Below are positions 1-46,747 of a DNA stretch of 64,000 bases, in pieces (position 1 is the stretch's first letter; each line of letters begins with the position of its first letter). A program made the position numbers and the translations under genes. The stretch is from Gemmatimonadota bacterium (lineage in GTDB: Bacteria; Gemmatimonadota; Gemmatimonadetes; Gemmatimonadales; GWC2-71-9), in NCBI GenBank assembly GCA_036679605.1, contig JAZDCZ010000289.1, forward strand, positions 1 through 64,000, in the 5' to 3' direction. The notes under the pieces are model-generated. The model had not been told where the DNA came from. It was given only the letters and a program-made list of their open reading frames with translations, and did no database searches.

Positions 1-1220
1 TTGAAGGTGACGAACGCGGCCCGGCTGCCGTCTGGTGAGAAGAACGGCACACCGCCACCGGTCGTCCCCGGTACCGTAGCCGCCTCCAGCTGATCCCGGT
101 GCCGAAGGAACAACTGTCGATTGCCGCTTGCGTCGCTCCCCGCGTAGAGAAACCGATTGCCGTCCGGCGATAGCGCGACCCTTGGGAACCCTGATGACCA
201 GAGCGCGTCGGAGAGTCTCACACTGTATCGCGACACGAGCGTTGGTGGCTTGGGACGCGAAAGCGTCCACACGGTTGTGAATAGGAGCACCGCCGCGAGA
301 GCAGCAAGCGGGACCGCGAACCGTTGCTTCCAGTCTGTCGCTGTGCCCGCAGCTAATGACGTGCCCTGGACTGTCGGAAGTGTGAACGCCGGGTTCGTCA
401 ATGCATCCGCGAAAGCCTTGGCACTCTCGAACCGATCCGCCGCCAACCTCTCCAACGACTTGGCTGTGGCCGCGGCGACATGGGACGGCACCGACTTCCG
501 TAGCTCCGTGACCGACCGCGCCTCGTCGGTTACGATCTTCATGATGATCGCCTGAGCTGACCCACCCACATGAGGCGGTTCGCCCGTCAACATTTCGTAC
601 AACACGCTGCCCAACGAGTAGATGTCCGACCGAGCAGTGAGGTCTTTCTCGGCGGTGGCTTGCTCGGGACTCATGTAATGCGGTGTCCCAAGACTCAGCC
701 CCGTCTCGGTCATCCGCCCACCGGCCGCCGCACTCACGGCGAGCGCGATCCCGAAGTCCGCCACCATGGGGCGGCCCTCGTGGAGCAGGATGTTCTCGGG
801 CTTGATATCTCGATGGATGACGTTCTGCCGATGGGCGTAGTCGAGGGCGTCCGCGATGGCGGTCGTGATCGCGACCGCCTCCTCGATGCCAAGCTGTGTC
901 TCGCGATTCAGTTTGTCGCGCAGCGTCTCGCCGTCGATGAACGGCATGACATAATAGAGGAAAGAGTCCGCTTCTCCCGAATCGAACAGCGGCAGGATGT
1001 GCGGGTGCTGCAAATTCGCTGTGGTCGTGATCTCCTGCACGAAACGCTCGGCACCCAAGACGGCAGCGAGCTCGGGGCGCAACACCTTCACCGCGACCTT
1101 GCGTTTGTGCTTCAAGTCCTCGGCGAGGTAGACGGTTGCCATGCCGCCTTCGCCCAAGTGGCGTTCGATCTGGTAGCGGTCGGCGAGGGCAGTCGAGAGC
1201 TTGGACGTGATCTCGGTCAT
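1..1220 (-). CDS. Ser/Thr protein kinase, probably with PD40/beta-propeller C-terminus (3' part runs off the window)
   Basis: Manual translation of the minus strand from ATG at 1220: MTEITSKLSTALADRYQIERHLGEGGMATVY...HRDIKPEN...DFG...GTPHYMSPEQ, then a TM segment and SPDG repeats. Absent from the ORF track because it is truncated. Close paralogue of 31158..33836. Confidence 0.93.
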   Translation of the reverse strand, partial: MTEITSKLSTALADRYQIERHLGEGGMATVYLAEDLKHKRKVAVKVLRPELAAVLGAERFVQEITTTANLQHPHILPLFDSGEADSFLYYVMPFIDGETLRDKLNRETQLGIEEAVAITTAIADALDYAHRQNVIHRDIKPENILLHEGRPMVADFGIALAVSAAAGGRMTETGLSLGTPHYMSPEQATAEKDLTARSDIYSLGSVLYEMLTGEPPHVGGSAQAIIMKIVTDEARSVTELRKSVPSHVAAATAKSLERLAADRFESAKAFADALTNPAFTLPTVQGTSLAAGTATDWKQRFAVPLAALAAVLLFTTVWTLSRPKPPTLVSRYSVRLSDALWSSGFPRVALSPDGNRFLYAGSDASGNRQLFLRHRDQLEAATVPGTTGGGVPFFSPDGSRAAFVTF

Positions 1221-1228
1221 GGGGCAAT

Positions 1229-1257
1229 AAGATGGAGTGCCGAAGCTCAGTTGGCTA
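1229..1257 (-). promoter_or_regulatory. Putative sigma70-type promoter TAGCCA-17-CATCTT, with the ATG 8 nt downstream (leaderless or near-leaderless)
   Basis: The same spacing and motif occur upstream of the kinases at 14632 and 33836 and of the kinase remnant at 11112. Confidence 0.65.
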
Positions 1258-1359: not shown

Positions 1360-2277
1360 TCAGTGCTGCGATTTCAGTCCTATGGCCCGTCCGTCCAGGT
1401 TCCACGCGGGATCGATGGTCACGCCCAGGTGGGTCAGGGCTGTCACAGCTACGTCCACGATGTTGGGAGGGGTCTGGGGTTCACCCGGAATGACCGAGGG
1501 ACCGTGGGCGAGAAAGAAAATGGTCCGTTCGTTGTCGGAATCGCCGCCGTGTCCTCCCTCGTCGTCGCGTCCGTGGTCGGTGGACATTAGGATCAACCAA
1601 TCTTCGTCGGCGTACGTGGGTCGCCTCTCCACCGCCGCCACCAAACGCCCCACGAGTCTGTCCGCCACTTCGATGGCGGCGTAGTACTCCGGGGCGAAGG
1701 TGCCGGTGGCGTGGGAGACCTCGTCGGGGTCACCGACGTAAACGAAGGCTGCGTCGAGGTCCTGGAAAGCCAGCCGCTCGACCGCCGCGTCCACAGAGAG
1801 GGAATCCGCCGGCCCGTACCCTAACTCACCGCCGTCGAAGAACAGTAGTTCGTCGATGGCGTTGCTGAGGAGGGGCCCGCCCGATGACGTCGTTGCCAGC
1901 GGCGCCCAATCCACGACCGCGAAGGTGTTGAACGACGGATCGACTCGCTCCAGGCGCGTCAAGAAGTCGGGATACGTGGCGTAGTCGTTGCCTGTGAAGT
2001 TGTTGCCATCAACCAGGTGCTTATCCGTGCGGGCGCCGATGAGCATGCTCGACCATCCGGGGCCGCTCACCGTCCGCACCTTGGTCCGGGCCCGGTCGCT
2101 GAAGAGTCCGTTGGCGATGAGACGGTCGATGTTGGGCGTGGCTACCTTGGCGAGAATGTCGATGCGGATGCCGTCGAGGCCGATGAGCAGCACTTTCTTG
2201 GCCGGCGGCGCGCCACGACACCCGAGGAACCCCGCGGCGATGGCAATACCGAGCAAACGTCCACTAACCCTCGGCAT
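1360..2277 (-). CDS. Alkaline phosphatase superfamily (type I phosphodiesterase/nucleotide pyrophosphatase-like) lipoprotein
   Basis: Motifs LLIGLDG, TVSGPGW, D..SH and TDHG; lipobox-like FLGC; start overlaps the upstream kinase stop. Confidence 0.85.
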   Translation of the reverse strand: MPRVSGRLLGIAIAAGFLGCRGAPPAKKVLLIGLDGIRIDILAKVATPNIDRLIANGLFSDRARTKVRTVSGPGWSSMLIGARTDKHLVDGNNFTGNDYATYPDFLTRLERVDPSFNTFAVVDWAPLATTSSGGPLLSNAIDELLFFDGGELGYGPADSLSVDAAVERLAFQDLDAAFVYVGDPDEVSHATGTFAPEYYAAIEVADRLVGRLVAAVERRPTYADEDWLILMSTDHGRDDEGGHGGDSDNERTIFFLAHGPSVIPGEPQTPPNIVDVAVTALTHLGVTIDPAWNLDGRAIGLKSQH

Positions 2278-4231
2278 CGATTTGCTTCAACGCCTGTTCC
2301 ACTTCCTCCTGTCCCTCTAGTAGACGCGCGATGTCGTCGGAGAGTTCGCGGGCCTTGGATAGGTCGGCGGTCACGCTGGTCGGCGATCCGGATCCGGCAT
2401 GCATGCGAAGCAAATCGAGCCGAATGGTTTCCAGCGACGTGACTGCATCTTGCAATCTCGTCTGGGCCACATCACGTGCCCGCTTGAGATGTTCGGCGAG
2501 TTGCTCGCGCTGCGCAGCGAGTCCGGAGTCCGGGGCGCTCAAAGCTGCGCGTTGCGGCAGCGCGGCGTTTCCTTCCGCCCCGACATCGATGAGCATTCCG
2601 TTCAGCTCGTCGATGCGGGTGCGCATTCCCTGTGCGTCCTTCTCGAGCCGACCCACGACTCGAGGGAGATCCTGAAACTCTTTGCGCGCGGCCTTCGGCA
2701 GTTCTTCGAAGAGACGTTCGGCGGCCATTCCGATGGCCATCTCGGTGGGGCGGTAAGCCGTGTTCGCCGCAGCCGGGAGTCCCTTGAGCCTGAACCCTGC
2801 CACCTTGAATAGCCACTTGCCCGCACGGCTCCCCCAAAACTTGATCCACCGTTTTCCGGCCAGACCCCGCCTGCTGCCACCTCTGGCTGCGGCGATGGGC
2901 AGCCCGACCATGCTGGCGACTAAGCCCCCGCCGCCGAGCAGGGCTATGCCTCCCAAGGCTAGATTGGAGATGGCATTGAGGTCGATGATGACGGCGAGAG
3001 CGGTTCCCACTCCCATTGCTGCCAAACCTCCGTGAACGAGCCCGAAGGCTAAGGTATCGATCCATTTCCTTTTTCCGCCCAGCTCGAACGCCAGTTCCTC
3101 CTTCCGCCTCTGGAGATCATCCTTGAGCGCCAGCAGGAGTTCTTGGTGTCCATATCCGGAGGCCAGAAGTTTGCGGGCCATTCGGACGAGCATCCCGATC
3201 GGGGCAAGACCCATCGCGCCAGTGAACAGCGCGGCTATCAGGCTCACCACTGCCTCTCCGCTCACCCCCGTGATGACGGTTATGGTAAGGGAGTACAGGA
3301 CCAGCAGTACCCACCCCGTCAAGCCCCGGAACTGCTCGCGGTTTTGTTTGACGAACACGCGCAGCGGCAACGGGATCTCGCGGCGCACCTCGATCGACCG
3401 GCTCATTGCCGCGGCCAGGTCTTCGCCATTCGCAAAGCGGTCCGCCGGGGCCTTGGCCAAACAACGGTCCATGGCCCGGGCCAAATGCTTGGGCACTTCG
3501 GGCGCGACGCTGGCGAGCCGCGGCGCGGCTTGGGTGATGTGCTTGGCGAGTATTGCGGCGACGGTGTCGCCTTCAAACGGGAGCTGACCGGACAACATAT
3601 AGTACCCGACCACTCCCAGAGAGTAGATGTCGCTTCGTTCGTCTACGGTCTCGCCGCTGGCCTGCTCCGGACTCATGTACTCAGCGGTTCCCAGCACTTC
3701 GCCTATTCCCGTGAGTCCGGGGCCCTCGCGTACTTGGGCGATCCCGAAATCAGTTACGAGCGCGCGGCCGGAACCCTCGAGCAGAATGTTGTCGGGTTTG
3801 ACATCACGGTGCACCACCCCTTGGGCGTGTGCGTAGGCGAGCGCCCACGCGACCTCTCGCAGAATGCGGGCGGCGTCGCCCGCAGGTAGGGGGCCGCGCC
3901 TCCTGATCGCCGCGCCGAGCGTTTCGCCGTCGACGTAGGCCATGGTGAAGAACACGAAGCTCCCGACCTCGTCCACCGCGTAGATCGGAACGATGTTTGG
4001 CTGCGAGAGCTTGGCCGCCGTACGCGCCTCACGCATGAACCGCTCGCGCAACGTGGGTTCTGCGGCCATGGACGGGGGCAGCAGCTTGAGGGCCACGGGC
4101 CGATCGAGGGCGACTTCGTGGGCCAGGTAGACGATCCCCATTCCCCCGCGACCGAGTTCCCGTTGCAGGGAATATCGACCGGCGAGTGCCTCCTGGACCG
4201 CAATGAACTCGGAGCTGGTGTCGTTTGTCAT
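2264..4231 (-). CDS. Membrane Ser/Thr protein kinase with TM helices and a C-terminal coiled coil
   Basis: GRGGMG, HRDVKPDN, DFG, YMSPE. Likely start is MTNDTSS at 4231. Paralogue of 26054..28204 (shared LETIRLDLLR / LENLRLDLLR tail). Confidence 0.92.
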   Translation of the reverse strand: MTNDTSSEFIAVQEALAGRYSLQRELGRGGMGIVYLAHEVALDRPVALKLLPPSMAAEPTLRERFMREARTAAKLSQPNIVPIYAVDEVGSFVFFTMAYVDGETLGAAIRRRGPLPAGDAARILREVAWALAYAHAQGVVHRDVKPDNILLEGSGRALVTDFGIAQVREGPGLTGIGEVLGTAEYMSPEQASGETVDERSDIYSLGVVGYYMLSGQLPFEGDTVAAILAKHITQAAPRLASVAPEVPKHLARAMDRCLAKAPADRFANGEDLAAAMSRSIEVRREIPLPLRVFVKQNREQFRGLTGWVLLVLYSLTITVITGVSGEAVVSLIAALFTGAMGLAPIGMLVRMARKLLASGYGHQELLLALKDDLQRRKEELAFELGGKRKWIDTLAFGLVHGGLAAMGVGTALAVIIDLNAISNLALGGIALLGGGGLVASMVGLPIAAARGGSRRGLAGKRWIKFWGSRAGKWLFKVAGFRLKGLPAAANTAYRPTEMAIGMAAERLFEELPKAARKEFQDLPRVVGRLEKDAQGMRTRIDELNGMLIDVGAEGNAALPQRAALSAPDSGLAAQREQLAEHLKRARDVAQTRLQDAVTSLETIRLDLLRMHAGSGSPTSVTADLSKARELSDDIARLLEGQEEVEQALKQIDAEG

Positions 4232-5859: not shown

Positions 5860-5945
5860 TTACACCTTAGCATCGATTTGCTTCAACGGCTGTTCCACTT
5901 CCTCCTGTCCCTCTGCTAGCCGCGCGATATCGACGGAGAGTTCGC
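5860..5945 (-). pseudogene. Orphan 3'-end remnant of a membrane kinase gene
   Basis: 5870-5945 matches 2274-2349 at 70/76 nt (manual count). It encodes ELSVDIARLAEGQEEVEQPLKQIDAKV*, with the stop at the equivalent position. Confidence 0.9.
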
Positions 5946-5992: not shown

Positions 5993-6409
5993 TTACATTC
6001 CGGGAGGCGTGGCCCCGCCAGCTCCTGCTCCCGACATCCCCTGTCGCCCGGTGATGATGAATAGGACCGTCACCAATGCGAGGAGCGCGGCGTCCGCCCA
6101 AACTACCCAGTTTCCCACGGAGGCCATCGCTGTTAGCGCGAACACCACTGCCCAAAGTCCATTGAGGACCGTCAGTCCCAGTATCATGGCATCCCGGGCT
6201 TTCGAGGCCTCCGCGGTGCGGGCGGTCCAGCACATGACCCCGAGACCGATGGCCATGGCGCACCAGCTCCGCAACAGGCTGATCTCCAGGCCGTCCAGCG
6301 GCGGCACGCCGTACAGTCGGGTGAAGAGTGCCGACGGAACGACGAGCGCCACGGCACCCGGGATCGCCATGAGTACGGCGTAGACGGAAAGCAGCGTCTT
6401 CAGGTTCAT
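5993..6409 (-). CDS. Hypothetical 4-TM membrane protein
   Basis: 138 aa, highly hydrophobic; SD GGAGGT. Confidence 0.7.
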   Translation of the reverse strand: MNLKTLLSVYAVLMAIPGAVALVVPSALFTRLYGVPPLDGLEISLLRSWCAMAIGLGVMCWTARTAEASKARDAMILGLTVLNGLWAVVFALTAMASVGNWVVWADAALLALVTVLFIITGRQGMSGAGAGGATPPGM

Positions 6410-6745: not shown

Positions 6746-8545
6746 ATGCTTTGCCCTGACTGCGGCACGAAAATACCGAAAGATGCTAGACACTGCCCCA
6801 AGTGTGACACGGTCGTGTCAGAATCGGTGGCTGAGGGGATGACGCCGGACTCGCCTACCGAGACACTCGGGGTCAGCGAGTTGCGGGATCGGTTGCAGGA
6901 CGCTCTCGGGTCACAGTATGCCGTCGAACGGTCGATCGGTCAGGGTGGCTTCGCAGTTGTATTTCTCGTCCGAGACCTGACGCTCAAGCGCCCGCTCGCG
7001 GTGAAGGTCATCTCTCCCGACTTGATCATCTCGCATGCCGTGCTCGAGCGATTTCGTCGAGAGGCCGAGACCATCGCACAACTCTCGCATCCGAATATCG
7101 TCCCCGTTCACTTCGTCGGAAGCAAGGGCGACCTCTTCTACCTCGCGATGACCTTTGTGGACGGCGAGAGCCTCGCCGATCGCGTGAGTCGCGAGGGGAG
7201 CTTGTCTGTTGAGGAATCCGCCCGCATCTTGCGCGAGATTGCCTCCGCGCTCGACCTCGCACACCGTCGCGGAGTGGTACACCGTGACGTCAAGCCGCAC
7301 AACGTTCTGCTCGAGAAGGAAACCCGCCGCGCGCTGCTGACCGATTTCGGGATCGCCCGCACCGCAGAGGGCGAGCATCTGACCGCGACGGGGATGGTTG
7401 TGGGCACACCGGCCTATATGAGTCCTGAACAGGTCACTGGCGACAAGGTGGACCATCGGGCCGACATCTACGCGCTAGGCATCGTTGGCTACGAGATGTT
7501 GGCCGGTCAGCTCCCGTTCACGGGTGAAAACCAGCAAGCAGTATTGATGCAGCGGGTGATGGGCGATCCGACACCCATCGACCAGATCAAGCCGGAGGTG
7601 CCCCAGTGGCTGGCATCGGTCGTGAGCAAGTGCCTGGCCACGGATCCCGCGCTACGCGTCGGCGACGCCGGTGAGATTGCCCGGGCGCTCGAGACGGCGA
7701 CGCCGGTTGAGGGTTCTCAGGTCATGCCCGTGGCCAAGTTCGCGCCGAAGCGAATTCGCAACTGGATCGTAGCGGCGGCCGTCGTTGTGCTAGGCATGGC
7801 CGGAGCAGTCTGGATATCTCGGGGTGGAGGGGCCGTAGCGGAACCGGCGGTTGAGCCAGTGGTTATGATACCGGCTGCTCCTCCCGCCATGGTGATCGTG
7901 CCGGGAGGTACGTTCATCATCGGACGAGCGAACGGTGGATTTACCGCACCAGCCCACGAGGTCACCCTCGACAGCTTCGCCATCGACCGCACGGAAGTCA
8001 GCATCGCGAGCTATCAGGAGTTCATTGCGGAGACCAGCGCGCCAATTCCGTGGTCGGCGCTTCCCGATTCGACGCTGCCCGTCACGCGCGTCAACTGGTT
8101 CGAGGCGCGGGACTACTGCAGGTGGCGCTACCAGGAGGGACGGCTCCCAACCGAAGAGGAGTGGGAGGCGGCGGCCCGAGGGCCCGAGGGCACCACCTAT
8201 CCGTGGTCAGAAACAACGCCTGCAGAACCGGGGAACACCGGTGCTCGTGGGCTCGGCGCTCTCGTACCGGTGGGCTCGAGCCAGAACGCTCTGGGAGCGT
8301 TTGATCTTATCGGCAATGTATGGGAGTGGACGAGCTCGCCCGCGCGAGTGTACCCGGGTGGCCAAGACGCACCGGCAAGGTCGGATGGTGCCTATGTAAT
8401 TAGAGGAGGCGCCTTCGACAGTGCTGAACGGTTCGCAAGCCCGTCCTACCGAGGGTACCTGCCGCCCACAGACAACCGATCGTCATACGAGAAGACGGGG
8501 TTCCGCTGCGCTCTATCGTTGCTGGGAACCGCAAGCAACCGGTAG
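6746..8545 (+). CDS. Ser/Thr kinase with N-terminal zinc ribbon, TM helix and C-terminal FGE-sulfatase (SUMF1/EgtB/PvdO) domain
   Basis: CPDC...CPKC; HRDVKPHN/DFG; RLPTEEEWE, GNVWEW, RGG.F and GFRC motifs; SD GGAGA before ATG 6746. Confidence 0.92.
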   Translation: MLCPDCGTKIPKDARHCPKCDTVVSESVAEGMTPDSPTETLGVSELRDRLQDALGSQYAVERSIGQGGFAVVFLVRDLTLKRPLAVKVISPDLIISHAVLERFRREAETIAQLSHPNIVPVHFVGSKGDLFYLAMTFVDGESLADRVSREGSLSVEESARILREIASALDLAHRRGVVHRDVKPHNVLLEKETRRALLTDFGIARTAEGEHLTATGMVVGTPAYMSPEQVTGDKVDHRADIYALGIVGYEMLAGQLPFTGENQQAVLMQRVMGDPTPIDQIKPEVPQWLASVVSKCLATDPALRVGDAGEIARALETATPVEGSQVMPVAKFAPKRIRNWIVAAAVVVLGMAGAVWISRGGGAVAEPAVEPVVMIPAAPPAMVIVPGGTFIIGRANGGFTAPAHEVTLDSFAIDRTEVSIASYQEFIAETSAPIPWSALPDSTLPVTRVNWFEARDYCRWRYQEGRLPTEEEWEAAARGPEGTTYPWSETTPAEPGNTGARGLGALVPVGSSQNALGAFDLIGNVWEWTSSPARVYPGGQDAPARSDGAYVIRGGAFDSAERFASPSYRGYLPPTDNRSSYEKTGFRCALSLLGTASNR

Positions 8546-8554
8546 CAATGGGTG

Positions 8555-8595
8555 TCACCCCGCACCTTCGCCTTCAACTCCTCGAAGAGGTTTCG
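8555..8595 (-). pseudogene. 3'-end remnant of a PD40-type kinase gene (FEELKAKV)
   Basis: 8563-8588 is identical over 26 nt to 31167-31192, the end of the kinase at 31158..33836. Confidence 0.75.
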
Positions 8596-8680: not shown

Positions 8681-11035
8681 TCAAGGCTTGGGTGAGAGTT
8701 TTGCGAGCGCCTCTCTAGCAGGCACATAATCGGGATCCAGCTTCAGCGCCGCCTCGTACGCCGTTCTCGCCTCGTCTATCTTGCCCTGTAGCTCGTAGAC
8801 CATCCCCAGCCGCCAATGGGCAGCAACATACGACGGTGCGCCCGGCTGTTGCTCGTGTTCCAGATATCTGAGGAACGAGCGGATTGCCAAGTCCAGATCC
8901 GTTTCTGCAAACAAAGCCATCCGGCCAACCTGATACAGTGCTGCCATGTTGTCGGGGTCCAGCTCGGTGATTCGTCTAAAGGTCGCGAGCGCTCGGAGCA
9001 GCGTCTCCTCGGTGCTGTCAGCTCCGATAGCGTCGATTGCCAACGTGAAGGCCAAGTTGTGGTGCTCGGTGCTCGTGAGCAGCGAGTCCGCTGCGTCGAC
9101 TGCGTCGGCAGCGAGCTCTGCGCGGAGGGCGGGATCTGCCTCACTCCAGGCAGCCTCGAACAGAGCGCCCAAGCAGTCCTCCATTGACTCCGTCGAGGGA
9201 TATGCACGGATCTCATGCAGGATGCGGCTCAACGCCTCACGCCGAAGCGGTTTCGGGCTCGTCGCGGAGCACAACGTAGCGATGATCATCTCGCCAAGGG
9301 CCGGCGCGATCGCAGTCAAAGGGCCGCTCAGCTCATCCATGAGTCCGCTGGCGTTCGCCCAGTCTCCATTGATGAGATACAGACTGAACGCGGCACCGCC
9401 GTAAACCCATACAAACGGATCAATGAGGCGAGGGTTGGCGAACAGACCTGCGGTCCGTAGAGAATCGGAAAGCTGTAGCGCCTCAGGGTGGCGGCCTGCC
9501 TCGGCAAGCAGGACCATGCGGCGTGCAGTCAGATTCTCCAACTCGGTTTCGACGCCGAGAGAATCGGCAATCTCGAGTTCAGCGAGAGCCCTGTCATAGA
9601 ACTCTTCCAGCTCCAGCACCCACGCCGCCCACATGTGCGCCTCCGCTACCGAGGGAGTAGCAACCAGCCATCGCTCCACCCACGTCCTCGCCACCGTCAG
9701 AGCGTTCGCACGTTCCTCGTTATATCTCCCCGCGAGATAGTCCTCGAAATCAAGTGGTATTAGCTCCAGCGTATCCCTCAACACGGGTGTGTAGGGGGTG
9801 ATGTTCATCACCATGGACAACCAGTGCGCGGGCAGCGAAGCGCTTTCACTACGCGCTGTTGGGACCACACCCAGGATCCATCCGGCCGCGGTGAGATAGC
9901 TGTGCACGAGGATCCCATAGCCCCCCGATCGCAACGGGTCGAGGAGCACTGCCCTTTTTGCGAGGTTGTTGGCTCTGTTCAGCGACCCACGAACCATCAG
10001 CTTACCGTTCACCGGCACGAGAACACCGTCCAGGCTCTCGAGCCAGGCCAGCGCGATGAGCACGTCCACATCCGTGGAGTCGCGTGCGAGCAGGACATCG
10101 AGCTGTTCCCTCGCCGCAGCAAACTGCCCGTGAAAGAACGCGTCCATAGCACGCAGAAACTGTCGTTCGCGCGACGGCAGGCGATCGGACAGCGCGACAG
10201 CACGGGTGAGATGGCCGTACGCAGGATGGGCGGCGTCCGAGAAAGCGTCCATGCTGGAGAACAGCAACCACGACTCGGCCAGCTTCAGGTAGGGGAGCGC
10301 GAAGGTGCTGTCGAGCCCTATCGCTTCCTCGAAGGCCTCTCGCGCCCGCCGCATCTCATAGCGATGGTAGTGCCGCAGACCTCGCATGTACGCTCTCAGT
10401 GCGCCGATGGACGCGGTCGTGACGGACGACAAGTCCACTGCGGACGCATCGACGCCCACCGTCTTGAGCAGCGCTGTGGCAATCCGCTTGTAGACGTCCT
10501 GAATCTCGTCTTCTGATTCGGTCTGCTCTTGCACCCTCACGACAACCCGACCAGTGACGACGTCGAGCGCCCGCGCGCTAATCTGGATGCGATCGCCGAT
10601 TCTCAGTACCTCGCCCGTCACTGCGGTCCATCCACCGGTCTCCTCGGCGACGCGACGAACTTGCGCCTCGTCCATCACGTCGCCAGGCGTGAGACCGTGG
10701 CGTCTCAACGCGGGATAGAGCCGCCCATCGGGTACGGTCGAGATCTCTTGCCACTGACTCAGCGCGTTCCCCAACATCAGCGACGACTCCCCCAGCCAGT
10801 CGTCCTCGGCGATCCCTCTTACGTTGCGGAAAGGCAGCACCAGGAAACTTCGCGCGCGAACGTCTTGGGCCGGGGGCTCGTCACGAGCTACGACGGCCGG
10901 CCGTCTTACGGCCACATCGCATGGCGGAGGCGTGCCGTCGGCGCACTGCGCACGCAGATGAAGCGGAAACACGGCTGCCAGCAGCGTCGTGGCAAGCGTG
11001 ACTTGAAGGGGCCGATGATAGTAGCGTATGGTCAT
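8681..11035 (-). CDS. Secreted TolB-N/CsgG-like plus TPR repeat protein, no kinase domain
   Basis: Signal peptide followed by QCADGTPPPC, LVLPFRN motif, and multiple TPRs (A..LDS.FA, ALKLDP). Confidence 0.85.
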   Translation of the reverse strand: MTIRYYHRPLQVTLATTLLAAVFPLHLRAQCADGTPPPCDVAVRRPAVVARDEPPAQDVRARSFLVLPFRNVRGIAEDDWLGESSLMLGNALSQWQEISTVPDGRLYPALRRHGLTPGDVMDEAQVRRVAEETGGWTAVTGEVLRIGDRIQISARALDVVTGRVVVRVQEQTESEDEIQDVYKRIATALLKTVGVDASAVDLSSVTTASIGALRAYMRGLRHYHRYEMRRAREAFEEAIGLDSTFALPYLKLAESWLLFSSMDAFSDAAHPAYGHLTRAVALSDRLPSRERQFLRAMDAFFHGQFAAAREQLDVLLARDSTDVDVLIALAWLESLDGVLVPVNGKLMVRGSLNRANNLAKRAVLLDPLRSGGYGILVHSYLTAAGWILGVVPTARSESASLPAHWLSMVMNITPYTPVLRDTLELIPLDFEDYLAGRYNEERANALTVARTWVERWLVATPSVAEAHMWAAWVLELEEFYDRALAELEIADSLGVETELENLTARRMVLLAEAGRHPEALQLSDSLRTAGLFANPRLIDPFVWVYGGAAFSLYLINGDWANASGLMDELSGPLTAIAPALGEMIIATLCSATSPKPLRREALSRILHEIRAYPSTESMEDCLGALFEAAWSEADPALRAELAADAVDAADSLLTSTEHHNLAFTLAIDAIGADSTEETLLRALATFRRITELDPDNMAALYQVGRMALFAETDLDLAIRSFLRYLEHEQQPGAPSYVAAHWRLGMVYELQGKIDEARTAYEAALKLDPDYVPAREALAKLSPKP

Positions 11036-11153
11036 CGTATCAGCACCAGGCTCTCGCTCAATAACAAAGCGGTCCGGGAGGGCGGTCGAGAGCCGGCGTT
11101 AATCTCGGTCATGAGGGATAAGATGCAGCGCCGAAGCTCAGCTGGCCAGCGAT
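11036..11153 (-). pseudogene. 5'-end remnant and promoter of a kinase gene, directly upstream of the TPR gene
   Basis: 11102-11153 vs 1210-1262 match at 46/53; 11068-11093 vs 1175-1200 match at 23/26. Reads MTEI/LSTAL.DRFVIERE.GA..M with a 1-nt frameshift. Confidence 0.88.
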
Positions 11154-12241: not shown

Positions 12242-14632
12242 TCACGGCACGCTGCCCCGGCCGCCGGGAATGCTCCCGTCCAGGTTCAGTCCCCAGCTTC
12301 GGTTCACCTCAAGCAGGAGCCGATCGTACCGCGGATCCTCGCGAAGCGGTCCGAGTACCTCTGGAAAGAGGTAGCGGGCAGCGAGGGTGGGCCAGGCTTC
12401 CCAGCGATCGACCTCTTGGAACGCTTCGAAGGCCATCTCCTCCTCTCCGAGCGCCGCATGTACCACGCCCACCTCAAACGGCTCGTCGAACTCCCGGAGC
12501 CGATCCAGCATTTCGCGGGCACGGGCGGTGTCCCCTGTGGCCACATGGGCAAGCGCCAGTGTGGCAAACGGCCCCGAGCCGGCCCACGGAACCGTAAGGT
12601 CTTGCAGAATCGATTTTGCTTCCGCCATCCGTCCCAGATGGTACAGGGCCACCGCCTCGTACAAATGTGTTGTAGCGAAATCGGGTTGAATTTCTCGCGC
12701 CCGCCGTGCTTCCTCGACCGCTCGCTCTCCGTCGCCGTGGATCAGGTAGGCCATCGACAGGCCGCTCAGGTTCTCCGGTGAGAGGGGGTCCAGCTCGACC
12801 CCACGCTTCGCCATCTCGAGAACCTCATTCGGATGACCGACTAGACTGTGTACCCATCTCAGCCAGCTGTACGCGTCGGCGTAGCTCGCCCTGAGATCCA
12901 CGGCCAGCTCCAGTTCACGGATCGCATCCGAGCCCTCGCGGTTCCTGTAATGGAGCATTCCGAGCGCGGCGTGGGCTTCCGCCAAATCCGGGTCCAGGGC
13001 CAGGGCTCGGCCGACGGCGTCACCGGCTCGGGGAAGTAGGCTTCCGGGCTCCGCGTACCCGTAGTCCTCGAGTAACCAGAGGGCGTCCGCCAAACCCGCC
13101 CAGGCAAGGGCGTAACTCGAGTCTCGAGCAATCGCCTGCCGAAAGTACTCCAATGCACGCCGCATCCCGTCTTCGGTCCGCTGATCCAGCAGCCCACGGC
13201 CCTGCACGTAAAGGCGATAGGCATCCAGGTTCTGTGTCGGCATCCGCTCGACCTGCTGCTCCTCCTCCGGGCTGAGCTGCATCTCCAGGGACAGCGCGAT
13301 CTGCTTCGTGACCTCGCTCTGAATCTGGAAGAGATTCTCGGCCGTCAGCTCCCGCCGGTAGCTCTTCGCCCACACCTGCCGGTCCGTCCGGGCGTTCACC
13401 AGCCGGGCACTCACCTGTACCTCATTGCCTGTCTCCTGGACTTCTCCACGGAGCACCCAGGTCACCCCCAATTCCCGGGCGATCGTCGGAAGCGTCTTCA
13501 CGGAAGTGCGGTAACGCATCACGGAGGTCCGGGAGGTGACACTGAGATCGGAGACGCTGGACAGCCGGGTCAGCACGTCTGCGTGGACCCCGTCGGTGAA
13601 AGTGGTGGCCTTCTCTTGCCCCAGGGTCTCGAATGGAAGGACTGCTATGGAGAGGCCGTTGATCTCGGTCCCGCCGCCGGCCCCCGTCAGGTACCAGCCG
13701 CCGGCCACCGCCGCCAGTAAGCCGAGGCCCACTCCGAACCCGATAACCAGCCGCTGCCATGGGACCGGCCGACGTGTGCCGGGCGCCGGCGACACTGCCG
13801 TGTGCGTCGTCAACGCCTTTGCAAACGCGCTCGGCGTGGGGAAGCGATCCTCGGGACTCTTCGCCAACGCCTTCTGCACCGCCCGCTCGACACACACGGG
13901 GATCTTCGGATCGCGGGTCCGGAGTGCCGGCACTGTGCCCGCGGCATGCTTCGCCAATAGCGCGTGCAGAGTATTCCCTTCGAAGGGAGTACGGCCGCCC
14001 ACCATTTCGTAGACCACACAGCCCAGGGCGTACACGTCGCTCCGAGCGTCCACTTCGGCCAGCCCCATGGCCTGCTCCGGACTCATGTATGCCGGAGTGC
14101 CGATTGCCAGTCCCGTACCGGTCAATCGCTCCCCACCGGCAGCTTGAACCGCGCGCGCGATCCCAAAATCCGCCACTATGGCTTGGTCTCCCGCGAGCAG
14201 GATGTTCTCTGGTTTGATGTCGCGATGGACAACACCTTGCTTGTGGGCGTAGCTGAGGGCCGAGGCGACCTGGTCGGTCAGACGGATACCGTCTTCCACC
14301 GACAGCCTCCCCTCGCGATCCAGCCGATCACGGAGCGACTCGCCTTCGATGTAGGGCATGACGTAGTAGAGGAAACCGTCGGCCTCGCCCGAGTCGTGGA
14401 GCGGCAGGATATGAGGGTGGGTGAGGTTCGCGGCAATCTCGATCTCGCGAACAAAACGCTCCGCGCCGAGCGCGGCGGCTAGTTCGGGGCGCAGTACCTT
14501 GATGGCGACTTTGCGGTGGTGCTTCAGATCCTCGGCCAGGTAGACCGTAGCCATCCCGCCGGCCCCGAGTTCGCAGTCAATGGCGTACCGATCGGCGAGG
14601 GCGGCCTTCAAGCTATCGAGTTGGTGCTCCAT
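12242..14632 (-). CDS. Ser/Thr kinase with TM helix, TolB-like domain and TPR repeats
   Basis: GAGGMA, HRDIKPEN, DFG; SIAVLPF, SRTSVM.Y, TPRs. Confidence 0.95.
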   Translation of the reverse strand: MEHQLDSLKAALADRYAIDCELGAGGMATVYLAEDLKHHRKVAIKVLRPELAAALGAERFVREIEIAANLTHPHILPLHDSGEADGFLYYVMPYIEGESLRDRLDREGRLSVEDGIRLTDQVASALSYAHKQGVVHRDIKPENILLAGDQAIVADFGIARAVQAAGGERLTGTGLAIGTPAYMSPEQAMGLAEVDARSDVYALGCVVYEMVGGRTPFEGNTLHALLAKHAAGTVPALRTRDPKIPVCVERAVQKALAKSPEDRFPTPSAFAKALTTHTAVSPAPGTRRPVPWQRLVIGFGVGLGLLAAVAGGWYLTGAGGGTEINGLSIAVLPFETLGQEKATTFTDGVHADVLTRLSSVSDLSVTSRTSVMRYRTSVKTLPTIARELGVTWVLRGEVQETGNEVQVSARLVNARTDRQVWAKSYRRELTAENLFQIQSEVTKQIALSLEMQLSPEEEQQVERMPTQNLDAYRLYVQGRGLLDQRTEDGMRRALEYFRQAIARDSSYALAWAGLADALWLLEDYGYAEPGSLLPRAGDAVGRALALDPDLAEAHAALGMLHYRNREGSDAIRELELAVDLRASYADAYSWLRWVHSLVGHPNEVLEMAKRGVELDPLSPENLSGLSMAYLIHGDGERAVEEARRAREIQPDFATTHLYEAVALYHLGRMAEAKSILQDLTVPWAGSGPFATLALAHVATGDTARAREMLDRLREFDEPFEVGVVHAALGEEEMAFEAFQEVDRWEAWPTLAARYLFPEVLGPLREDPRYDRLLLEVNRSWGLNLDGSIPGGRGSVP

Positions 14633-29631: not shown

Positions 29632-31161
29632 TCACATGATCGGCTGCTGCAGAATCGCGAGGATGACTTGGATTCCCTCGATGAAATTGCCGAGCCGGAT
29701 GTTTTCGTTGGGGCTGTGCTGGTTGTTGTCTGGGTTCACGGTGGGCACCGTGACCGCCGGAACGTTCAGCGTCGTAACGAACGGCGAGATGGGAATCGAA
29801 CCGCCACTCGTTCGGATCCTGATCGGCTCCTCGCCGAAGCGATGCACCATCGCGGCGGTCAACCAACGGCCAATCTCCGAATCCATCGGCGTGCGATAGG
29901 CGGCGTACGAGATGTTTGAGGTAAACGTCGCGATCCGCGGATATTGCTGGCGTTCCTCTTCGGTTGGTTCGCGGTCGATGACGTAGTACCCGAGCCCCAC
30001 TACATGCTCCCGAATCAAGCGCAATAGGCGAGGGGGATCGCTCTCCCGCACCAACCGGACGTCGATCTCGGCCGTTGCGAATCCGGGTACGATCGTACGG
30101 CTCTGCGCGCCGACCCAACCCGACAGCATGCCCCGGATGTTGAGTGAGGGATATTGCCGGGCTTCCTGCAGCGTTGCTCCCACAGCGTCCGTCTCGACGA
30201 TACCCAATTGGCGCTTGATGGCGTCCTCGTCGTCGGGCACCCGTGCTAGGGCCGACCGCGTGGCGGCGTCGAGCGTTATGCCGTCATAAAACCCAGGAAT
30301 CGTCACGCGACCGGCGTCATCCTTCATCGAGGCGAGGACCTGTGCCAAGCCGAGCGCCGGGTTGGGCACCCAGTTTCCGTAGTGCCCGCTGTGCTGCGGC
30401 ACCCGCGGTCCGTACACGGTGAGCGTAATAGTCGCGATACCGCGCGCGCCGAACGTCAACGTCGGTAGGTTCGTGGGGTGGCGGGGGCCGTCGAAGATGA
30501 CGAGCATGTCTGCGGCAAGTTTGTTGCGATATCGTTCTACCATTCCGGGCAGGTTGGGTGAGCCCATCTCTTCCTCGGTATCGACGATCACCTTGATGTT
30601 GAAGTCGGGTGTCACTCCGGCGGCATCCAGCGCCGAGACGGCCGCGAGGAATTTTATGTTCTGTCCTTTGGAGTCAGAGGTCGAGCGCGCAAAGACGCGC
30701 CACTCGGGGTCTTGTGCGCCGTTTAAACTTTCCCAGGGGATGTCCCGCCACTCTCCGTCCTGACCGCGCTCGCGCAGCACCGGCTCATACGGTGAGTCTT
30801 GATGCCACCGAGTGGGATCTACCGGTTGCCCGTCCGCTTGGAGATAGACCAGGACCGTCCGCTGAGCACCAGGCACAGTCCGTTCGGCAAACAAGGCCGG
30901 GATGCGACCGGTCTCCAATTCTTCCGTGTGAAAGCCCCGCTCGCGGAACTGGGCCGTGAGCCAGTCGATGACCCTGCGGAGGTCCTCCTGGTGGTGTGCG
31001 TCGTTCGGGATTCTCAGGTACTCGCGAAATAGCTCGAGCGCATGGGGGACCTGGTCGAGGGCGTGGGATTCGATCTGTGCCGACGAGAGTTGCTGGGCCG
31101 CTACGGCACGCACGCCGACTATGCCGAACAGCGCGACAACAATTGTGAGAGACTTGATCAT
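29632..31161 (-). CDS. Secreted M20/M25/M40 family metallo-hydrolase
   Basis: Signal peptide; DGQP, ARS.SD.KG, EEE.GSP, DG, HSGHYGNW, NQH.PNEN; ATGA overlap with the kinase stop. Confidence 0.9.
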   Translation of the reverse strand: MIKSLTIVVALFGIVGVRAVAAQQLSSAQIESHALDQVPHALELFREYLRIPNDAHHQEDLRRVIDWLTAQFRERGFHTEELETGRIPALFAERTVPGAQRTVLVYLQADGQPVDPTRWHQDSPYEPVLRERGQDGEWRDIPWESLNGAQDPEWRVFARSTSDSKGQNIKFLAAVSALDAAGVTPDFNIKVIVDTEEEMGSPNLPGMVERYRNKLAADMLVIFDGPRHPTNLPTLTFGARGIATITLTVYGPRVPQHSGHYGNWVPNPALGLAQVLASMKDDAGRVTIPGFYDGITLDAATRSALARVPDDEDAIKRQLGIVETDAVGATLQEARQYPSLNIRGMLSGWVGAQSRTIVPGFATAEIDVRLVRESDPPRLLRLIREHVVGLGYYVIDREPTEEERQQYPRIATFTSNISYAAYRTPMDSEIGRWLTAAMVHRFGEEPIRIRTSGGSIPISPFVTTLNVPAVTVPTVNPDNNQHSPNENIRLGNFIEGIQVILAILQQPIM

Positions 31162-43376: not shown

Positions 43377-43416
43377 ATGCCCAGGATCCAAGCAAGCCGA
43401 TCGTTATGCCGTCGAG
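43377..43416 (+). pseudogene. Short kinase 5'-end remnant (MPRIQA/ADRYAVE)
   Basis: GCCGATCGTTATGCCGTCGAG encodes ADRYAVE, the N-terminal motif of this kinase family; TATCTT lies upstream. Confidence 0.55.
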
Positions 43417-43612
43417 TCTCTGGCCACTTTCCGCTCGGAGCCCTATTCTTCACCCTGTCCTAGCCAGGAAATGTCGATCCTTGACCGATCAGTTGTACCA
43501 GCCATCCGCCGAGTGGCCCGCCTGGAAGCGGGAAAAGCAAAGAGCCGAACGACAAATCGCTCTGCTCTATTGGCACAAGCGGGAGTGGACAGCCAACAAT
43601 GAGAGTTTCTGA

Positions 43613-46600
43613 GTGAGCGAACTCGAGTCCCGGCTACAAACAGCCGTTGGCGATACCTACCGCATCGAGAAGGAGCTGGGCGGCGGAGGGATGAGCCGCG
43701 TGTTCCTGGCCGAGGAGACTCGGCTAGGTCGCAAGGTCGTGATCAAGGTGCTGCCGCCCGAGATGTCTGCCGGTGTGAGCGTGGAACGGTTCGAGCGTGA
43801 GATCCGGCTAGCCGCCAAACTGCAGCACCCCCACATCGTGCCACTCCTTACGGCAGGATCTCGAGACGATCTGCTCTACTATGTGATGCCTTACATCGAG
43901 GGAGAGTCCCTGCGGGCCAAGCTGACCAGGGAGGGCGAGCTACCGATGGGCGAGTCACTCCGGATCTTGAGGGACGTGGCCGACGCCCTGGCGTACGCTC
44001 ATGAGCAGGGGGTGGTGCACCGCGACATCAAACCCGACAACGTGCTTTTATCCCGCAACCACGCGGTGGTTACGGACTTCGGAGTAGCCAAGGCTGTGAG
44101 CGCGTCCACTGGCGGTCAGTCGTTGACGTCAATGGGCATAGCGCTGGGCACGCCTGCGTACATGGCTCCGGAACAGGCAGCAGCAGACCCCCATGTGGAT
44201 CATCGTGCGGATCTGTATGCGCTGGGTGTGCTGGCCTACGAGATGTTGAGTGGCCGGCCGCCGTTTATGGGTCCCAATCCACAGGCGGTGTTGAGCGCCC
44301 ACATGACGTTGGCGCCCGATCCTGTTTCTGTGCACCGCTCGACAGTGTCCGCCGCTCTAAACGAACTCATTATGCGGTGCTTGGAGAAGAAGGCTGCCGA
44401 TCGGTGGCAGCGCGCGGACGACCTACGGGTGCAGTTCGAGGCGATGACGACGCCGAGTGGTGGCATGACGCCAACGGGTACGCAACCGGTGCCGGCGGTT
44501 TCCATTTCGTCAGCCGAGCGTGCGGCGCAGAACTCACATCCGATGCGAGTGTTGGGTTTGTTTGGCCTGGCCTCGGTGGGAGCCTTGGCGATTGTCTATT
44601 TCCTGGTGCAATTGATTGGGCTGCCGGACTGGGTGTTCTACGGGGCGATCGGCGTGCTGGCAGTCGGCTTACCCATCGTTCTCATGACCGGGCGTAGAGA
44701 GCGTCAGGTGGCGATGGCGACGATGACTGGCATGTCGTTGGCGACGCCGGTGGGCATGGAGCGGCACTTCACCTGGCGCAAGTCGCTTGTTGGAGGGGGG
44801 TTGGCGTTTGCCGGGCTAGGTGTGTTCGCCGCCATCTACATGGCAACGCGGACGCTGGGGATCGGGCCGGCCGCGACCCTAATGTCGACCGGGGCGTTCG
44901 GCCGGCGCGACTTGATTATTCTAGCGGCGTTCGAGAACCGGACGGCCGATTCCACCCTCGGCTCAACTGTCACGGAACTGCTTCGCATAAGTCTGTCGGG
45001 ATCGCCCGTGATCCGAATCGCCGATCCGGCGCGCCTCTCGGAGAGCCTCGCGCGCATGCAGCTCCCGCCGGGCGCCCGCATCGACGAGGTTGTCGCCCGC
45101 GAGATCGCCGAGCGGGAGAGTATCAAGGCGGTGATCGCCGGAGAAGTGGTGCCCTTGGGTGACGGCTACCTCGTCTCTGCCCGCATGGTCTCGGCGACCG
45201 GTGACGTGTTGACGGCACAGCAGGCGTCCGCTGCAGACGCGGGTAAACTTGTCGCGGCGGTCGACGATCTCTCCGGCAAGTTGCGCGAGCGCATCGGGGA
45301 GTCGTTGCGTACGATCCGCCGCACCCTTCCGCTCGAACTTGTGACCACGGGTTCGTTGCGTGCGCTCCGATTGTACGCTCAGGCCACGCAAGCCGAAGTC
45401 ACAGGCGATGACTATAGGGCGGTGGCATTGCTCGAGCAAGCCATTGCGGAAGACTCGCTGTTTGCGATGGCACACCGCAAGATCGCGACAGTTCTTGCGA
45501 ACAATTTCGAGCAGTTCGGGAGGGCGAGGGAGGCAGCGACTAGGGCCTACGAGCTACGCGACCGACTGACAGAGCTGGAGCGCGGCTACACGATCGCGCA
45601 ATACCACACCGATGTGACCGGCCGGCGCGAAGAGGCATTGGCTGCGTATCGGACCATCCTGGAACGCTATCCCGACGATCATCGGGCACTCAATAATTCG
45701 GGCGTGTTGTACTTCCAGCTCGGTGACGACGAACGAGCGAGAGATTTCTATCAACGCGCTTTGGACATCGATTCCACCTGGTCGGTGGGTTTCACGAACC
45801 TCGCTTGGGAGCAAAAGAACCTGGGCGACTTCGACGTTGCCCGGCAGACGCTGGATGCCATGCAGGAGCGATTCCCCGGCAATCCTCGGATCGAGAACGC
45901 TCGAGGCGTGCTTGCCATGGCGCAGACCGATTATGCGGGAGCACAGGATCACTGGACGAACGTCCTCGAGTCGCAAAGCGGAAATCTAGCTTGGCGAGCG
46001 GATGCGTCGCAGCAGCAGGCGATGTTGGCGGCAACTCAGGGGCAATACCGCAGGGGCGAGCAATATTTCGGAGATGCGCTGTCTGCCTTGCAACAGCGCG
46101 AGGTTTCGACCCAACGGCTGATCACGCAGTGGGAATTCGACAGACTGCTGGTGATGCCCGATCGCGCGGTACCCGAGCGGCTGCTGGAGGTCATCGCGCC
46201 CGCCGTAATGGATTCGCTGGCGGTTCCCGATCGATTGTACGAGTCGATCGTGCAATACTTTGCCCTGCGGGGCGATGCACAGCGTGCGGAGCAGTTCCTG
46301 CGGGACATGGAGCGATCCGGCTACCCAGAACTTGGACTCGCTATGCGGCGTGGCTTCGACCGGTCACGAGGATGGGCCGCAATCGCAGCGGGTGATACCG
46401 AACAGGGCCTGACGTATCTCCGTGCCGGTGTCGATGGCTTCGTCTGCGGGCCCTGTGCCAACGGGATGATGGCCATGGCGCACGACGCGGCCGGAAACGC
46501 AGACTCATCACTGGTGTATTGGGAAGCTTATCTACAGACCAATTGGGGCATACCAGGCATTGAATCGTGGGCCCGGCCGGCGGCATACCGGCGTCTCGGC

Positions 46601-46747
46601 GAGATCTACGAGGCGCGCGGCGACTCGGACAAGGCGGTCGAGTACTACGACAAGTTCGTGGATCTCTGGAAAGACGCGGACGCCGAACTACAACCGCAGG
46701 TCAAGGACGTGCGGGAGCGGATCGCCAGGTTAGTGGGGGAACGATAG
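43613..46747 (+). CDS. Ser/Thr kinase with TM helices, TolB-like domain and TPR repeats
   Basis: GGGGMS, HRDIKPDN, DFG, YMAPE; FENRT, VTT.SL.ALR.Y, TPRs, W.DADAELQP. Confidence 0.95.
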   Translation: MSELESRLQTAVGDTYRIEKELGGGGMSRVFLAEETRLGRKVVIKVLPPEMSAGVSVERFEREIRLAAKLQHPHIVPLLTAGSRDDLLYYVMPYIEGESLRAKLTREGELPMGESLRILRDVADALAYAHEQGVVHRDIKPDNVLLSRNHAVVTDFGVAKAVSASTGGQSLTSMGIALGTPAYMAPEQAAADPHVDHRADLYALGVLAYEMLSGRPPFMGPNPQAVLSAHMTLAPDPVSVHRSTVSAALNELIMRCLEKKAADRWQRADDLRVQFEAMTTPSGGMTPTGTQPVPAVSISSAERAAQNSHPMRVLGLFGLASVGALAIVYFLVQLIGLPDWVFYGAIGVLAVGLPIVLMTGRRERQVAMATMTGMSLATPVGMERHFTWRKSLVGGGLAFAGLGVFAAIYMATRTLGIGPAATLMSTGAFGRRDLIILAAFENRTADSTLGSTVTELLRISLSGSPVIRIADPARLSESLARMQLPPGARIDEVVAREIAERESIKAVIAGEVVPLGDGYLVSARMVSATGDVLTAQQASAADAGKLVAAVDDLSGKLRERIGESLRTIRRTLPLELVTTGSLRALRLYAQATQAEVTGDDYRAVALLEQAIAEDSLFAMAHRKIATVLANNFEQFGRAREAATRAYELRDRLTELERGYTIAQYHTDVTGRREEALAAYRTILERYPDDHRALNNSGVLYFQLGDDERARDFYQRALDIDSTWSVGFTNLAWEQKNLGDFDVARQTLDAMQERFPGNPRIENARGVLAMAQTDYAGAQDHWTNVLESQSGNLAWRADASQQQAMLAATQGQYRRGEQYFGDALSALQQREVSTQRLITQWEFDRLLVMPDRAVPERLLEVIAPAVMDSLAVPDRLYESIVQYFALRGDAQRAEQFLRDMERSGYPELGLAMRRGFDRSRGWAAIAAGDTEQGLTYLRAGVDGFVCGPCANGMMAMAHDAAGNADSSLVYWEAYLQTNWGIPGIESWARPAAYRRLGEIYEARGDSDKAVEYYDKFVDLWKDADAELQPQVKDVRERIARLVGER

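Follow-up and report, generated by a model that had tools for sequence, protein, structure and literature searches.

Promoter-bearing repeats that serve both as expression signal and as homologous crossover site are known from the PeSL cassettes of the T4-type phages RB49 and phi1, where units of PeSL element plus open reading frame (ORF) are inserted, deleted and replaced without an integrase in hyperplastic regions (Arbiol et al. 2010, PMC2839356). The authors state that evidence of such shuffling in cellular organisms was lacking at that date. Homology-facilitated illegitimate recombination has been described for effector-immunity arrays of the Vibrio type VI secretion system (T6SS) (Kirchberger et al. 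2017, PMC5361080), and C-terminal displacement for Rhs (Jackson et al. 2009, PMC2935791). In the tandem lpl cluster of S. aureus, paralogues cross over in a stretch that is conserved among them (Tsuru and Kobayashi 2008, PMC2568036), 27% of hotspots were reported to be without integrases and transposases (Oliveira et al. 2017, PMC5635113), and cassette insertion at SALIN and attG has been described for integrons (Loot et al., bioRxiv 2022.09.11.507474). Kinase expansion is known from Planctomycetota, the passages of PMC11032199 used here making no mention of Gemmatimonadota. The window analyzed in this study is a stretch of 64,000 nucleotides (nt) from a Gemmatimonadota bacterium (assembly GCA_036679605.1, contig JAZDCZ010000289.1, positions 1 to 64,000), labelled G000:C212:1-64000, where G000 is the metagenome-assembled genome (MAG) and C212 the source contig. 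Its first 47 kb carry Ser/Thr kinase genes, other genes, referred to as cargo, and short remnants of kinase gene ends, referred to as stubs. An initial annotation had proposed that incoming genes recombine at the conserved kinase termini and inherit a kinase promoter. We found stubs throughout the lineage, and units that switch neighbours inside an anchor, which is the predicted promoter and first codons of one kinase subfamily.

Kinase stubs in the window, the genome and its relatives

The remnants considered in the window are as follows; the kinase remnants were scored by comparison with every kinase end, and 400 intergenic windows drawn at random provided the null.

5860..5945, minus strand: 3' stub of about 85 nt upstream of kinase 2, whose end it matches at 92% identity
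6620..6661, minus strand: 3' stub of a non-kinase gene, matching the terminal 42 nt of the TPR paralogue C419:151955-154222 at 95%
8554..8595, minus strand: 3' stub of about 38 nt, kinase end of the EELKAKVG type
11036..11153, minus strand: 5' stub with predicted promoter (-35-like box 11148-11143, -10 box 11125-11120) and ATG at 11112
28830..28948, minus strand: possible old 5' stub, core 28843-28885, borderline
43377..43416, plus strand: claimed 5' remnant, at chance level

Three of the kinase remnants named in the initial annotation proved sound. The stretches 5850-5950(-) and 8545-8645(-) scored 122 and 57, with 0% of the null as high in either case. The remnant 11036-11153(-) scored 106 (0.25% of the null as high; 5' profile E=2e-5) and contains, besides the predicted promoter, about 46 nt of recent kinase sequence followed by an older ERExGxDxM piece, which runs into the start codon of a TPR gene. 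The remnant 28830-28948(-) is borderline, with a score of 29 that 5.75% of the null reached and an nhmmer match at decoy level (E=5.6); a clear stub in front of an extracytoplasmic function (ECF) sigma factor gene was found in L022. The last one, 43377-43416, falls at chance level: the stretch 43350-43440 scored 25 (24.5% of the null as high), the remnant is absent from the 5'-profile matches, and it adjoins position 43418, where a block common to the sister species starts.

Assembly chimeras between paralogues are a concern in a short-read MAG whose contigs frequently end within kinases, and as an explanation of the stubs their probability is close to nil. Unitigs of run X1, possibly the source sample, were compared with window positions 1-20000 (runs X2, X3 and X5, with small shares and pieces of relatives, were left out). 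They span the three tested junctions (5860, 8554 and 11036-11153) with zero differences at a depth of 18-19 and so refute chimeras there, unitig 2172-6502 covering the stub 5860-5945, unitig 6475-9221 those at 6620-6661 and 8554-8595, and unitig 9726-14375 that at 11036-11153. Moreover, the same junctions recur in other genomes, and in a single-chromosome record all three anchors are stubs (L126, L134, L136).

A total of 104 ORFs with a full kinase domain were found in the MAG, which comprises 6.7 Mb in 434 contigs with a completeness of 96.5%. Comparison of kinase genes and their flanks with the kinase-masked genome gave 142 clusters of matches, of which 37 are 5', 25 are 3', 18 are internal and 62 are upstream-only. 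From 36 rows, 33 short 5' stubs were kept after removal of a longer divergent kinase, a contig end and one weak single match; 17 short 3' stubs were kept by hand from 33 rows, the rest being spurious ends of kinases that are frameshifted or cut, repeats, and matches below 30 nt. A 5' nucleotide profile found 34 matches at E<=0.1 versus 0 in the reversed decoy. Protein profiles on intergenic DNA found 16 N-terminal and 9 C-terminal matches (one of the latter a 789-nt frameshift tail) and 0 in the decoys, and profiles of the HRD and YMSPEQ motifs had 0 matches on intergenic DNA. Kinase termini form a repeat family, much commoner than internal fragments, as the initial annotation had expected, and one subfamily of about 27 members, combining kinase and beta-propeller, is the source of most stubs. 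Note that terminal and internal counts cannot tell capture from decay, because nested deletion also removes the middle of a gene.

The 5' remnants had been described as stopping in the same zone. Lengths at 29 distinct junctions range from 15 to 162 nt (median 62), and 15 of them end at nt 40-90; the common zone is confirmed only in part, the breakpoints being dispersed and not fixed. Cargo between both kinase ends is not the rule either, full 5'-cargo-3' scars being found for only 3-4 of the 33 stubs. Four of the 3' stubs lie 1-67 nt after an intact kinase. An intact kinase is present within 10 kb of 23 of the 33 stubs, compared with 20% of genes. Local duplication of a neighbouring kinase was rejected as the origin of 5' stubs, since among the 23 stubs with a kinase downstream the nearest one ranked in the top 3 for 5.

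Stubs are not unique to kinases. The MacB control family (39 members) gave 3 N-terminal matches and 1 C-terminal match, the latter at decoy level, and a control family of 8 members gave 4 stubs; kinases are the extreme case among stub-leaving families, not the sole one. Short terminal duplicates of non-kinase genes, among them an Ig-like family and MacB permeases, were seen at C113:38675 and 44372, C28:62881, C276:88045, 92179 and 94763, and C13:21866-22248 and 46580-46932. The 3'-end duplications at C357:220869 and C165:62654 are typical island attachment scars; from their C-terminal sequence we take the genes to be leuS-like and guaB-like, respectively. Two kinases, C87:4698-7949 and C296:1531-4533, have the first kilobase in common (87%) and differ in their C-terminal parts. 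We also noted an 88-nt palindromic heptamer-repeat spacer between an EELK-type kinase end (its last 15 nt) and the next kinase start, a unit that crosses gene boundaries and is present in six copies (C214:49020, 51835, 67208, 85278 and 86108; C277:3839).

In other genomes, the exact 26-nt anchor gave 13 matches on 12 metagenome contigs (9 stubs, 3 kinases and 1 cut by a contig end), and with a degenerate anchor 12 GTDB genomes yielded 25 distinct matches, of which 11 are stubs, 12 are kinases and 2 are cut (L138 repeats L113 and was counted once). The exact 26-31-nt anchor had 0 matches to the diverged copies of the window itself, and the anchor pattern had none in viral contigs. The sample of relatives comprised, besides the pattern matches, 40 kinase-rich regions (about 0.6 Mb) from 16 genomes. 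These regions encode at least 88 full kinase domains, with 5' stubs in at least G001, G012, G014, G021 and G027; one of those in G001 is about 520 nt long. The genomes with the same anchor are classified as Gemmatimonadota/Gemmatimonadales, and labels of the sequencing runs hint at a marine habitat. The pattern of kinase-start stubs is real and lineage-wide.

Exchange at the anchor

Four pairs of loci have stub, junction and cargo in common and differ in the upstream DNA, with homology beginning at -39, -12, -37 and -38. In three other sets the upstream DNA is common and the DNA behind the anchor differs, an intact kinase being one of the forms in two sets. Contig C265 carries anchor-FAA, anchor-RidA and anchor-DUF2306 units in tandem. 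C265 and the sister species G001 share a unit of anchor, FAA hydrolase, spacer and following anchor (1129 nt, 92% identity), with RidA behind it in the former and a kinase in the latter; since core blocks of the two genomes are 69-75% identical, the exchange of the unit was recent. Three genomes of another genus carry the FAA gene without an adjacent stub. On C301 an intact kinase follows the RidA unit and its spacer (89%). The RidA unit occurs under two different promoters, joined in the common stretch of -10 box and start; the second of these promoters also precedes other DNA at C87:1362. Two copies of the DUF2306 unit (97-98.6%) have different flanks on both sides. In total, three anchor-cargo units were found more than once (89-98% identity), with other neighbours each time and the switch inside the anchor; the anchor is therefore a homologous crossover site. 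Some right-hand joints are non-homologous, since one FAA pair diverges exactly at the stop codon of the cargo.

Synonymous identity peaks at both kinase termini. Among 17 full-length paralogues, identity at fourfold sites is 0.66/0.62 in codons 1-30 and 0.64 in the last 10 codons, and 0.36-0.53 elsewhere in the kinase domain, where amino-acid identity reaches 0.94. Seven MacB paralogues used as control display no terminal rise. Of 69 kinases, 30 have a hexamer of the TAnnnT type 12-15 nt ahead of the start, versus 11% of genes, and a ribosome-binding site (RBS) word is found in 7 of 69 kinases versus 48% of genes. As the hexamer is common near the start and the RBS word rare, the kinase genes are probably leaderless. 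When 14 stubs with the commonest promoter type were compared with 4-5 intact kinases, the -10 box was unchanged in all 14 (0 changes in 84 positions), with 3/84 changes in the -35-like box and 16/238 in the spacer (a hand recount against the majority base; 27 against a single reference copy). Motif and conservation thus point to the anchor as a promoter. The gene after the stub is on the same strand in 29 of 33 cases, compared with 66 of 99 for intact kinases (p=0.024) and 75.8% genome-wide (p=0.07), at a median distance of 73 nt. Its own signals are uninformative, a -10 box being found in 1 of 25 cargo genes versus 11% of genes and an RBS in 12 of 25 versus 48%. The proposal that kinase termini are recombination anchors and promoter donors is supported by the switches inside the promoter and 5' repeat, by the synonymous peaks, by the kept -10 box and by the 29 stubs that point into a same-strand gene; promoter activity and the first capture step are presumed.

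Cargo families among 40 stub-adjacent proteins include solute-binding proteins, major facilitator superfamily transporters, a cyclase, FAA hydrolase, RidA, DUF2306 and Sel1. Two toxin-antitoxin pairs, a two-component pair, MscS, an AAA ATPase and an ECF sigma factor are found as well. In-frame stub fusions were found at C214:39184, C419:154222 and C88:28102 and in L011, L021 and P0003, the last being a second, longer in-frame stub on the TPR family of the window gene 8681-11035. The metagenome contig L011 (4013-6070) carries a 15-codon kinase stub in frame with a 686-amino-acid AAA ATPase.

Some of the cargo being toxin-antitoxin pairs, the genes might be integron cassettes that a remote IntI put into secondary (attG) sites close to kinase promoters; alternatively, a site-specific recombinase might act on the anchor. 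The genome holds attC-like arrays, on the small contigs C432, C350 and C279, and two ORFs (C73:382-1425 and C407:8622-9605) which, by a motif plus blastp, we take to be IntI-like. An IntI 5' fragment (C182:11176-11408) lies beside a second tRNA-Phe. Cassette insertion near promoters has also been described (bioRxiv 2022.09.11.507474). However, an attC-like site follows 1 of 40 stub-adjacent genes, a doubtful one, versus 41 of 5548 genes; the R-box word is found at 1 of 33 breakpoints; and no attC-like repeat lies within 3 kb of a stub. Folded as DNA, the anchor does no better than its shuffles (z +0.9 to -0.5), which excludes it as an attC-like hairpin, and has no stable terminator stem-loop, while the breakpoints spread over 15-162 nt. 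A candidate attC at 6506-6624 likewise folds no better than shuffles and was rejected. These counts largely refute integron cassettes as the general mechanism, single cases being possible, and make an explanation of this type highly improbable.

We lean towards a reading in which kinase-rich tRNA islands turn over in two stages, the birth of joints and then homologous shuffling at anchors. In the first stage, foreign or neighbouring DNA would enter one of the roughly 100 dispensable kinase paralogues by an illegitimate join, in many cases held by homology on one side, and deletions would trim the dead kinase to a leaderless promoter and first codons before the new gene, or to last codons behind it. 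In the second, which the mosaics show, ordinary homologous recombination takes place inside the promoter and first 40-150 nt of one subfamily, a stretch 85-97% alike in dozens of copies. Units of anchor, cargo and spacer thereby move between loci and related species, bringing a predicted promoter, and line up before intact kinases or replace a kinase body. Homology of the kinase domain may also swap C-terminal parts and strand the old 3' end. Elements that integrate at tRNA genes probably seeded the islands, and no integrase would act on the anchor. RecA dependence, circular intermediates and this origin of the first joints are presumed. ComEC and DprA are present, and carry little weight as they are also in 10 of 14 control genomes; Ku is present here and in 1 of 14 controls. 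A wider form of the idea is tentative and, in our judgement, rather doubtful: that this is the Gemmatimonadales counterpart of PeSL shuffling, with the kinase leader as a genome-wide and cross-species attachment and expression site, units that excise, travel and integrate by host recombination alone into integron-like arrays without integrase or att, and a kinase expansion kept partly as a network of landing pads.

Several observations weigh against two-stage turnover. Empty scars, running from 5' end to 3' end, are present at C26, L015, L026 and L060, and show that plain deletion occurs. Non-kinase genes gave 123 short terminal versus 79 short internal matches, many of them from insertion sequence (IS) elements, attC-like and palindromic repeats, and island duplications. 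The stub copies are mutually related, so their counts are not independent; the same-strand excess is modest; and synonymous conservation at the termini could stem from constraints on translation initiation. A search of 5 genomes, 400 family genomes and 3 genomes found no orthologous locus in which an intact kinase takes the place of a window remnant, the sister species being without the interval. Contamination of the MAG is 6.3%, and twin units may partly be co-binned strains; tetranucleotide distances and contig-end overlaps assign C265, C301 and C169 to the main assembly.

Several of these points would suit plain birth and death, in which island kinases duplicate, die and erode in place by nested deletion, stubs are passive scars and recombination is incidental. 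Rapid pseudogene deletion is documented (PMC2916853), an exponential fits the stub lengths (p=0.16, with the parameter estimated from the same data) and a uniform distribution is rejected. Empty scars and frameshifted kinases exist, other families leave stubs, and missing internal fragments are expected under nested deletion also. Nevertheless, a toy model of in-place decay (250 runs per setting; point mutation and selection left out, and hence weak alone) expects a 3' piece beside 24-41% of 5' stubs, versus 1-2 of 33 seen (P<=0.008). Anchor-bounded units with changed neighbours, the promoter swap and the 92% cross-species identity are left unexplained, and we regard in-place decay as an unlikely account of the whole pattern.

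The tRNA-Phe island and other genes of the window

The sister species G001 is syntenic left of tRNA-Phe and again from window position 43418 (84% over 3365 nt). The interval between tRNA-Phe and that position measures 75.6 kb in G000 versus 0.8 kb in G001, where it holds one stub. Since synteny resumes at 43418, the 47 kb under study form the distal end of an island at tRNA-Phe that carries 11 kinases. The intact tRNA-Phe is at C419:127187, with further copies near 139300, 140300 and 149200. Three anchors have the same DNA upstream, which proved to be the 3' part of a tRNA-Phe with arm-like repeats and an insert of 45 nt in the T-loop; these partial copies lie 200-240 nt before the anchors. 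Copies with the same hairpin-like insert were seen at C419 about 140300-140425 (L065), partially at C419:139283 and 149195 and C214:38945, and in another genus (G238, L154:8049 and 11588); one such copy is otherwise full length and was missed by ARAGORN. No cognate integrase was found in the C419 and window parts of the tRNA-Phe island, whereas the tRNA-Pro island on C426 has one, beside the tRNA and just upstream of a stub. The att-like tRNA fragments suggest that integrase-driven events probably seeded the island.

The fragments raise a further explanation, in which small islands without an integrase accrete at tRNA genes, moved in trans by a tyrosine integrase; the kinase leader would then be the constant right end of such an element, and stubs would be decayed element ends. 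Besides the tRNA-Phe copies on C419 and the integrase on C426, tRNA-Phe fragments precede kinases in G207, and 33 tyrosine recombinases above cut-off were found among the 35 PF00589 matches of the genome. A tRNA or tRNA fragment lies within 10 kb of 20 of the 33 stubs (10 of 19 stub clusters), versus 16% of genes; C343, with an array of 24 tRNAs on one contig that is probably a phage or plasmid-like element, was left out of these statistics. However, only 3 of the 33 stubs lie within 500 nt of a tRNA fragment, and the FAA, RidA and DUF2306 units switch inside the anchor without one. One tRNA-Phe fragment moreover lies with its anchor, in inverted orientation, within the tRNA-Lys island of C214, where no tRNA-Phe is near. 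Such tRNA-bound elements are quite improbable as the source of the stubs, and two-stage turnover is still preferred.

The genes of the window discussed here are listed below.

1..1220, minus strand: kinase 1 (kinase + beta-propeller; starts MTEIT, ends EELKAKVGN), by translation; subfamily behind most stubs
1229..1257, minus strand: predicted leaderless promoter of kinase 1, by motif (-35-like box 1257-1252, 17-nt spacer, -10-like CATCTT 1234-1229)
2264..4231, minus strand: kinase 2 (Pfam PF00069)
5993..6409, minus strand: membrane-type ORF of 138 amino acids, no family match; the 3' stub 5860..5945 follows after 48 nt
6746..8545, plus strand: kinase 3 (kinase + FGE-sulfatase; Pfam), adjoining the TPR gene in other genera also (L102, L103, L114)
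8681..11035, minus strand: secreted TolB-like/TPR gene, 784 amino acids, the sole window gene between 5' and 3' stubs
12242..14632, minus strand: kinase 4 (kinase + TPR; Pfam)
26054..28204, minus strand: kinase 5, directly behind the ECF sigma factor gene (Pfam, NCBIfam)
28225..28788, minus strand: ECF sigma factor, TIGR02999 above cut-off (Pfam, NCBIfam)
29081..29613, plus strand: BrnT/BrnA toxin-antitoxin pair, directly upstream of the borderline stub 28830-28948 (family match)
31158..33836, minus strand: kinase 6 (kinase + PD40 beta-propeller, EELK-type end; Pfam)
43418..46747, plus strand: right island border, kinase 7 and its upstream region, 84% nucleotide identity to G001:C4, there 0.8 kb from tRNA-Phe
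43613-46747, plus strand: kinase 7 (kinase + TPR; Pfam)

Seven kinase genes are present as described in the initial annotation, six by Pfam PF00069 and the one cut by the window edge by translation. The latter, kinase 1, runs on into C419 through an identical end overlap of 114 nt, and the joined gene is intact (881 amino acids). The absence of recombinases and transposases from the window also stands within the searches run (Pfam on 47 ORFs, NCBIfam on 20 and tblastn with 10 integrase- or transposase-like ORFs of the genome itself); none of the 35 PF00589 matches is on C212. Rfam gave no match within the window.

Not all of the cargo is unrelated to the kinases, as had been claimed. The TPR gene 8681-11035 adjoins an FGE-type kinase in G059, G066 and G256 too. 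Its body is 83% identical to G124:C7 and its first 550 nt with leader are 78% identical to C419:154222; homologues of the gene are from Gemmatimonadales, and that in G124 lies 0.6 kb from tRNA-Pro and an integrase-like ORF. Because leader and body resemble different genes and the last 42 nt of the paralogue lie at 6620-6661, one TPR gene may have been displaced by another, a non-kinase case of the same process. The ECF sigma factor 28225..28788 is probably the partner of kinase 5, in a pair of the ECF sigma factor and Ser/Thr kinase type, and not unrelated cargo; positions 28007-28796 match G004 at 77% identity. Two cytochrome c clusters, 40042-43075 (-) and 14952-16959 (+), each contain a carboxypeptidase-regulatory-like gene, and the former has the lowest GC content in the window (50%).

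Comparison with described systems

The initial annotation knew of no description of such a system. No kinase-leader joints in Gemmatimonadota were found in the openly available literature; close analogues are in print, however, in the PeSL cassettes and the displacement arrays. Many hotspots of bacterial gene transfer lack an integrase, and for one phylum this locus offers a concrete and testable answer as to how promoterless genes enter such hotspots and become expressed. A family of signalling paralogues would be the source of dozens of near-identical repeats with a predicted promoter that serve as crossover sites, tying kinase expansion to the turnover of accessory genes; circles and transcription starts are predicted. 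Annotators should note that kinase-like N-termini of unrelated Gemmatimonadota proteins are real fusions.

The array had been called integron-like. As in integrons and SALIN/attG insertions, promoterless genes are placed behind a resident promoter and form arrays. Unlike in these systems, there is no nearby IntI (none was found in the window or in the C419 and C214 islands), no attC, no hairpin site and no fixed, folded point of crossover; the locus is not an integron.

The setting resembles tandem tRNA islands, with an intact tRNA at one end, repeated tRNA 3' fragments, no integrase and a large difference between relatives. It departs from the model set out for integrase-free hotspots in PMC5635113, where double crossover in single-copy flanking core genes swaps whole islands, in that dispersed internal repeats transfer units of gene size from locus to locus. 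The lpl cluster shares the crossover in a conserved stretch of paralogues and an inherited unit that crosses gene boundaries; there, however, only halves of paralogues are shuffled and no unrelated genes are carried.

The displacement arrays of T6SS and Rhs have in common with this locus a homologous anchor on one side, a non-homologous joint on the other, a displaced 3' end left downstream, as in the TPR stub 6620-6661 and in the 3' stubs that trail four intact kinases at 1-67 nt, and the lack of an integrase. Their cargo is a cognate toxin tip or effector-immunity pair, whereas here it comprises transporters, enzymes, toxin-antitoxin pairs and regulators, and the anchor includes a predicted promoter. 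Like PeSL, the locus has a repeated and here predicted promoter element concentrated in plastic regions, with gene units exchanged at boundaries inside the element. PeSL is a dedicated intergenic cassette of phages with a terminator hairpin, whereas the anchor has no hairpin, lies in a cellular chromosome, varies at its 3' end and is formed by the gene starts of a family of protein-coding paralogues; excised mini-circles are typical of PeSL, and the anchor units are known from contigs alone. By these likenesses, the locus works most like phage PeSL shuffling combined with anchored displacement, inside integrase-free tRNA hotspots, and is not a member of the PeSL family.

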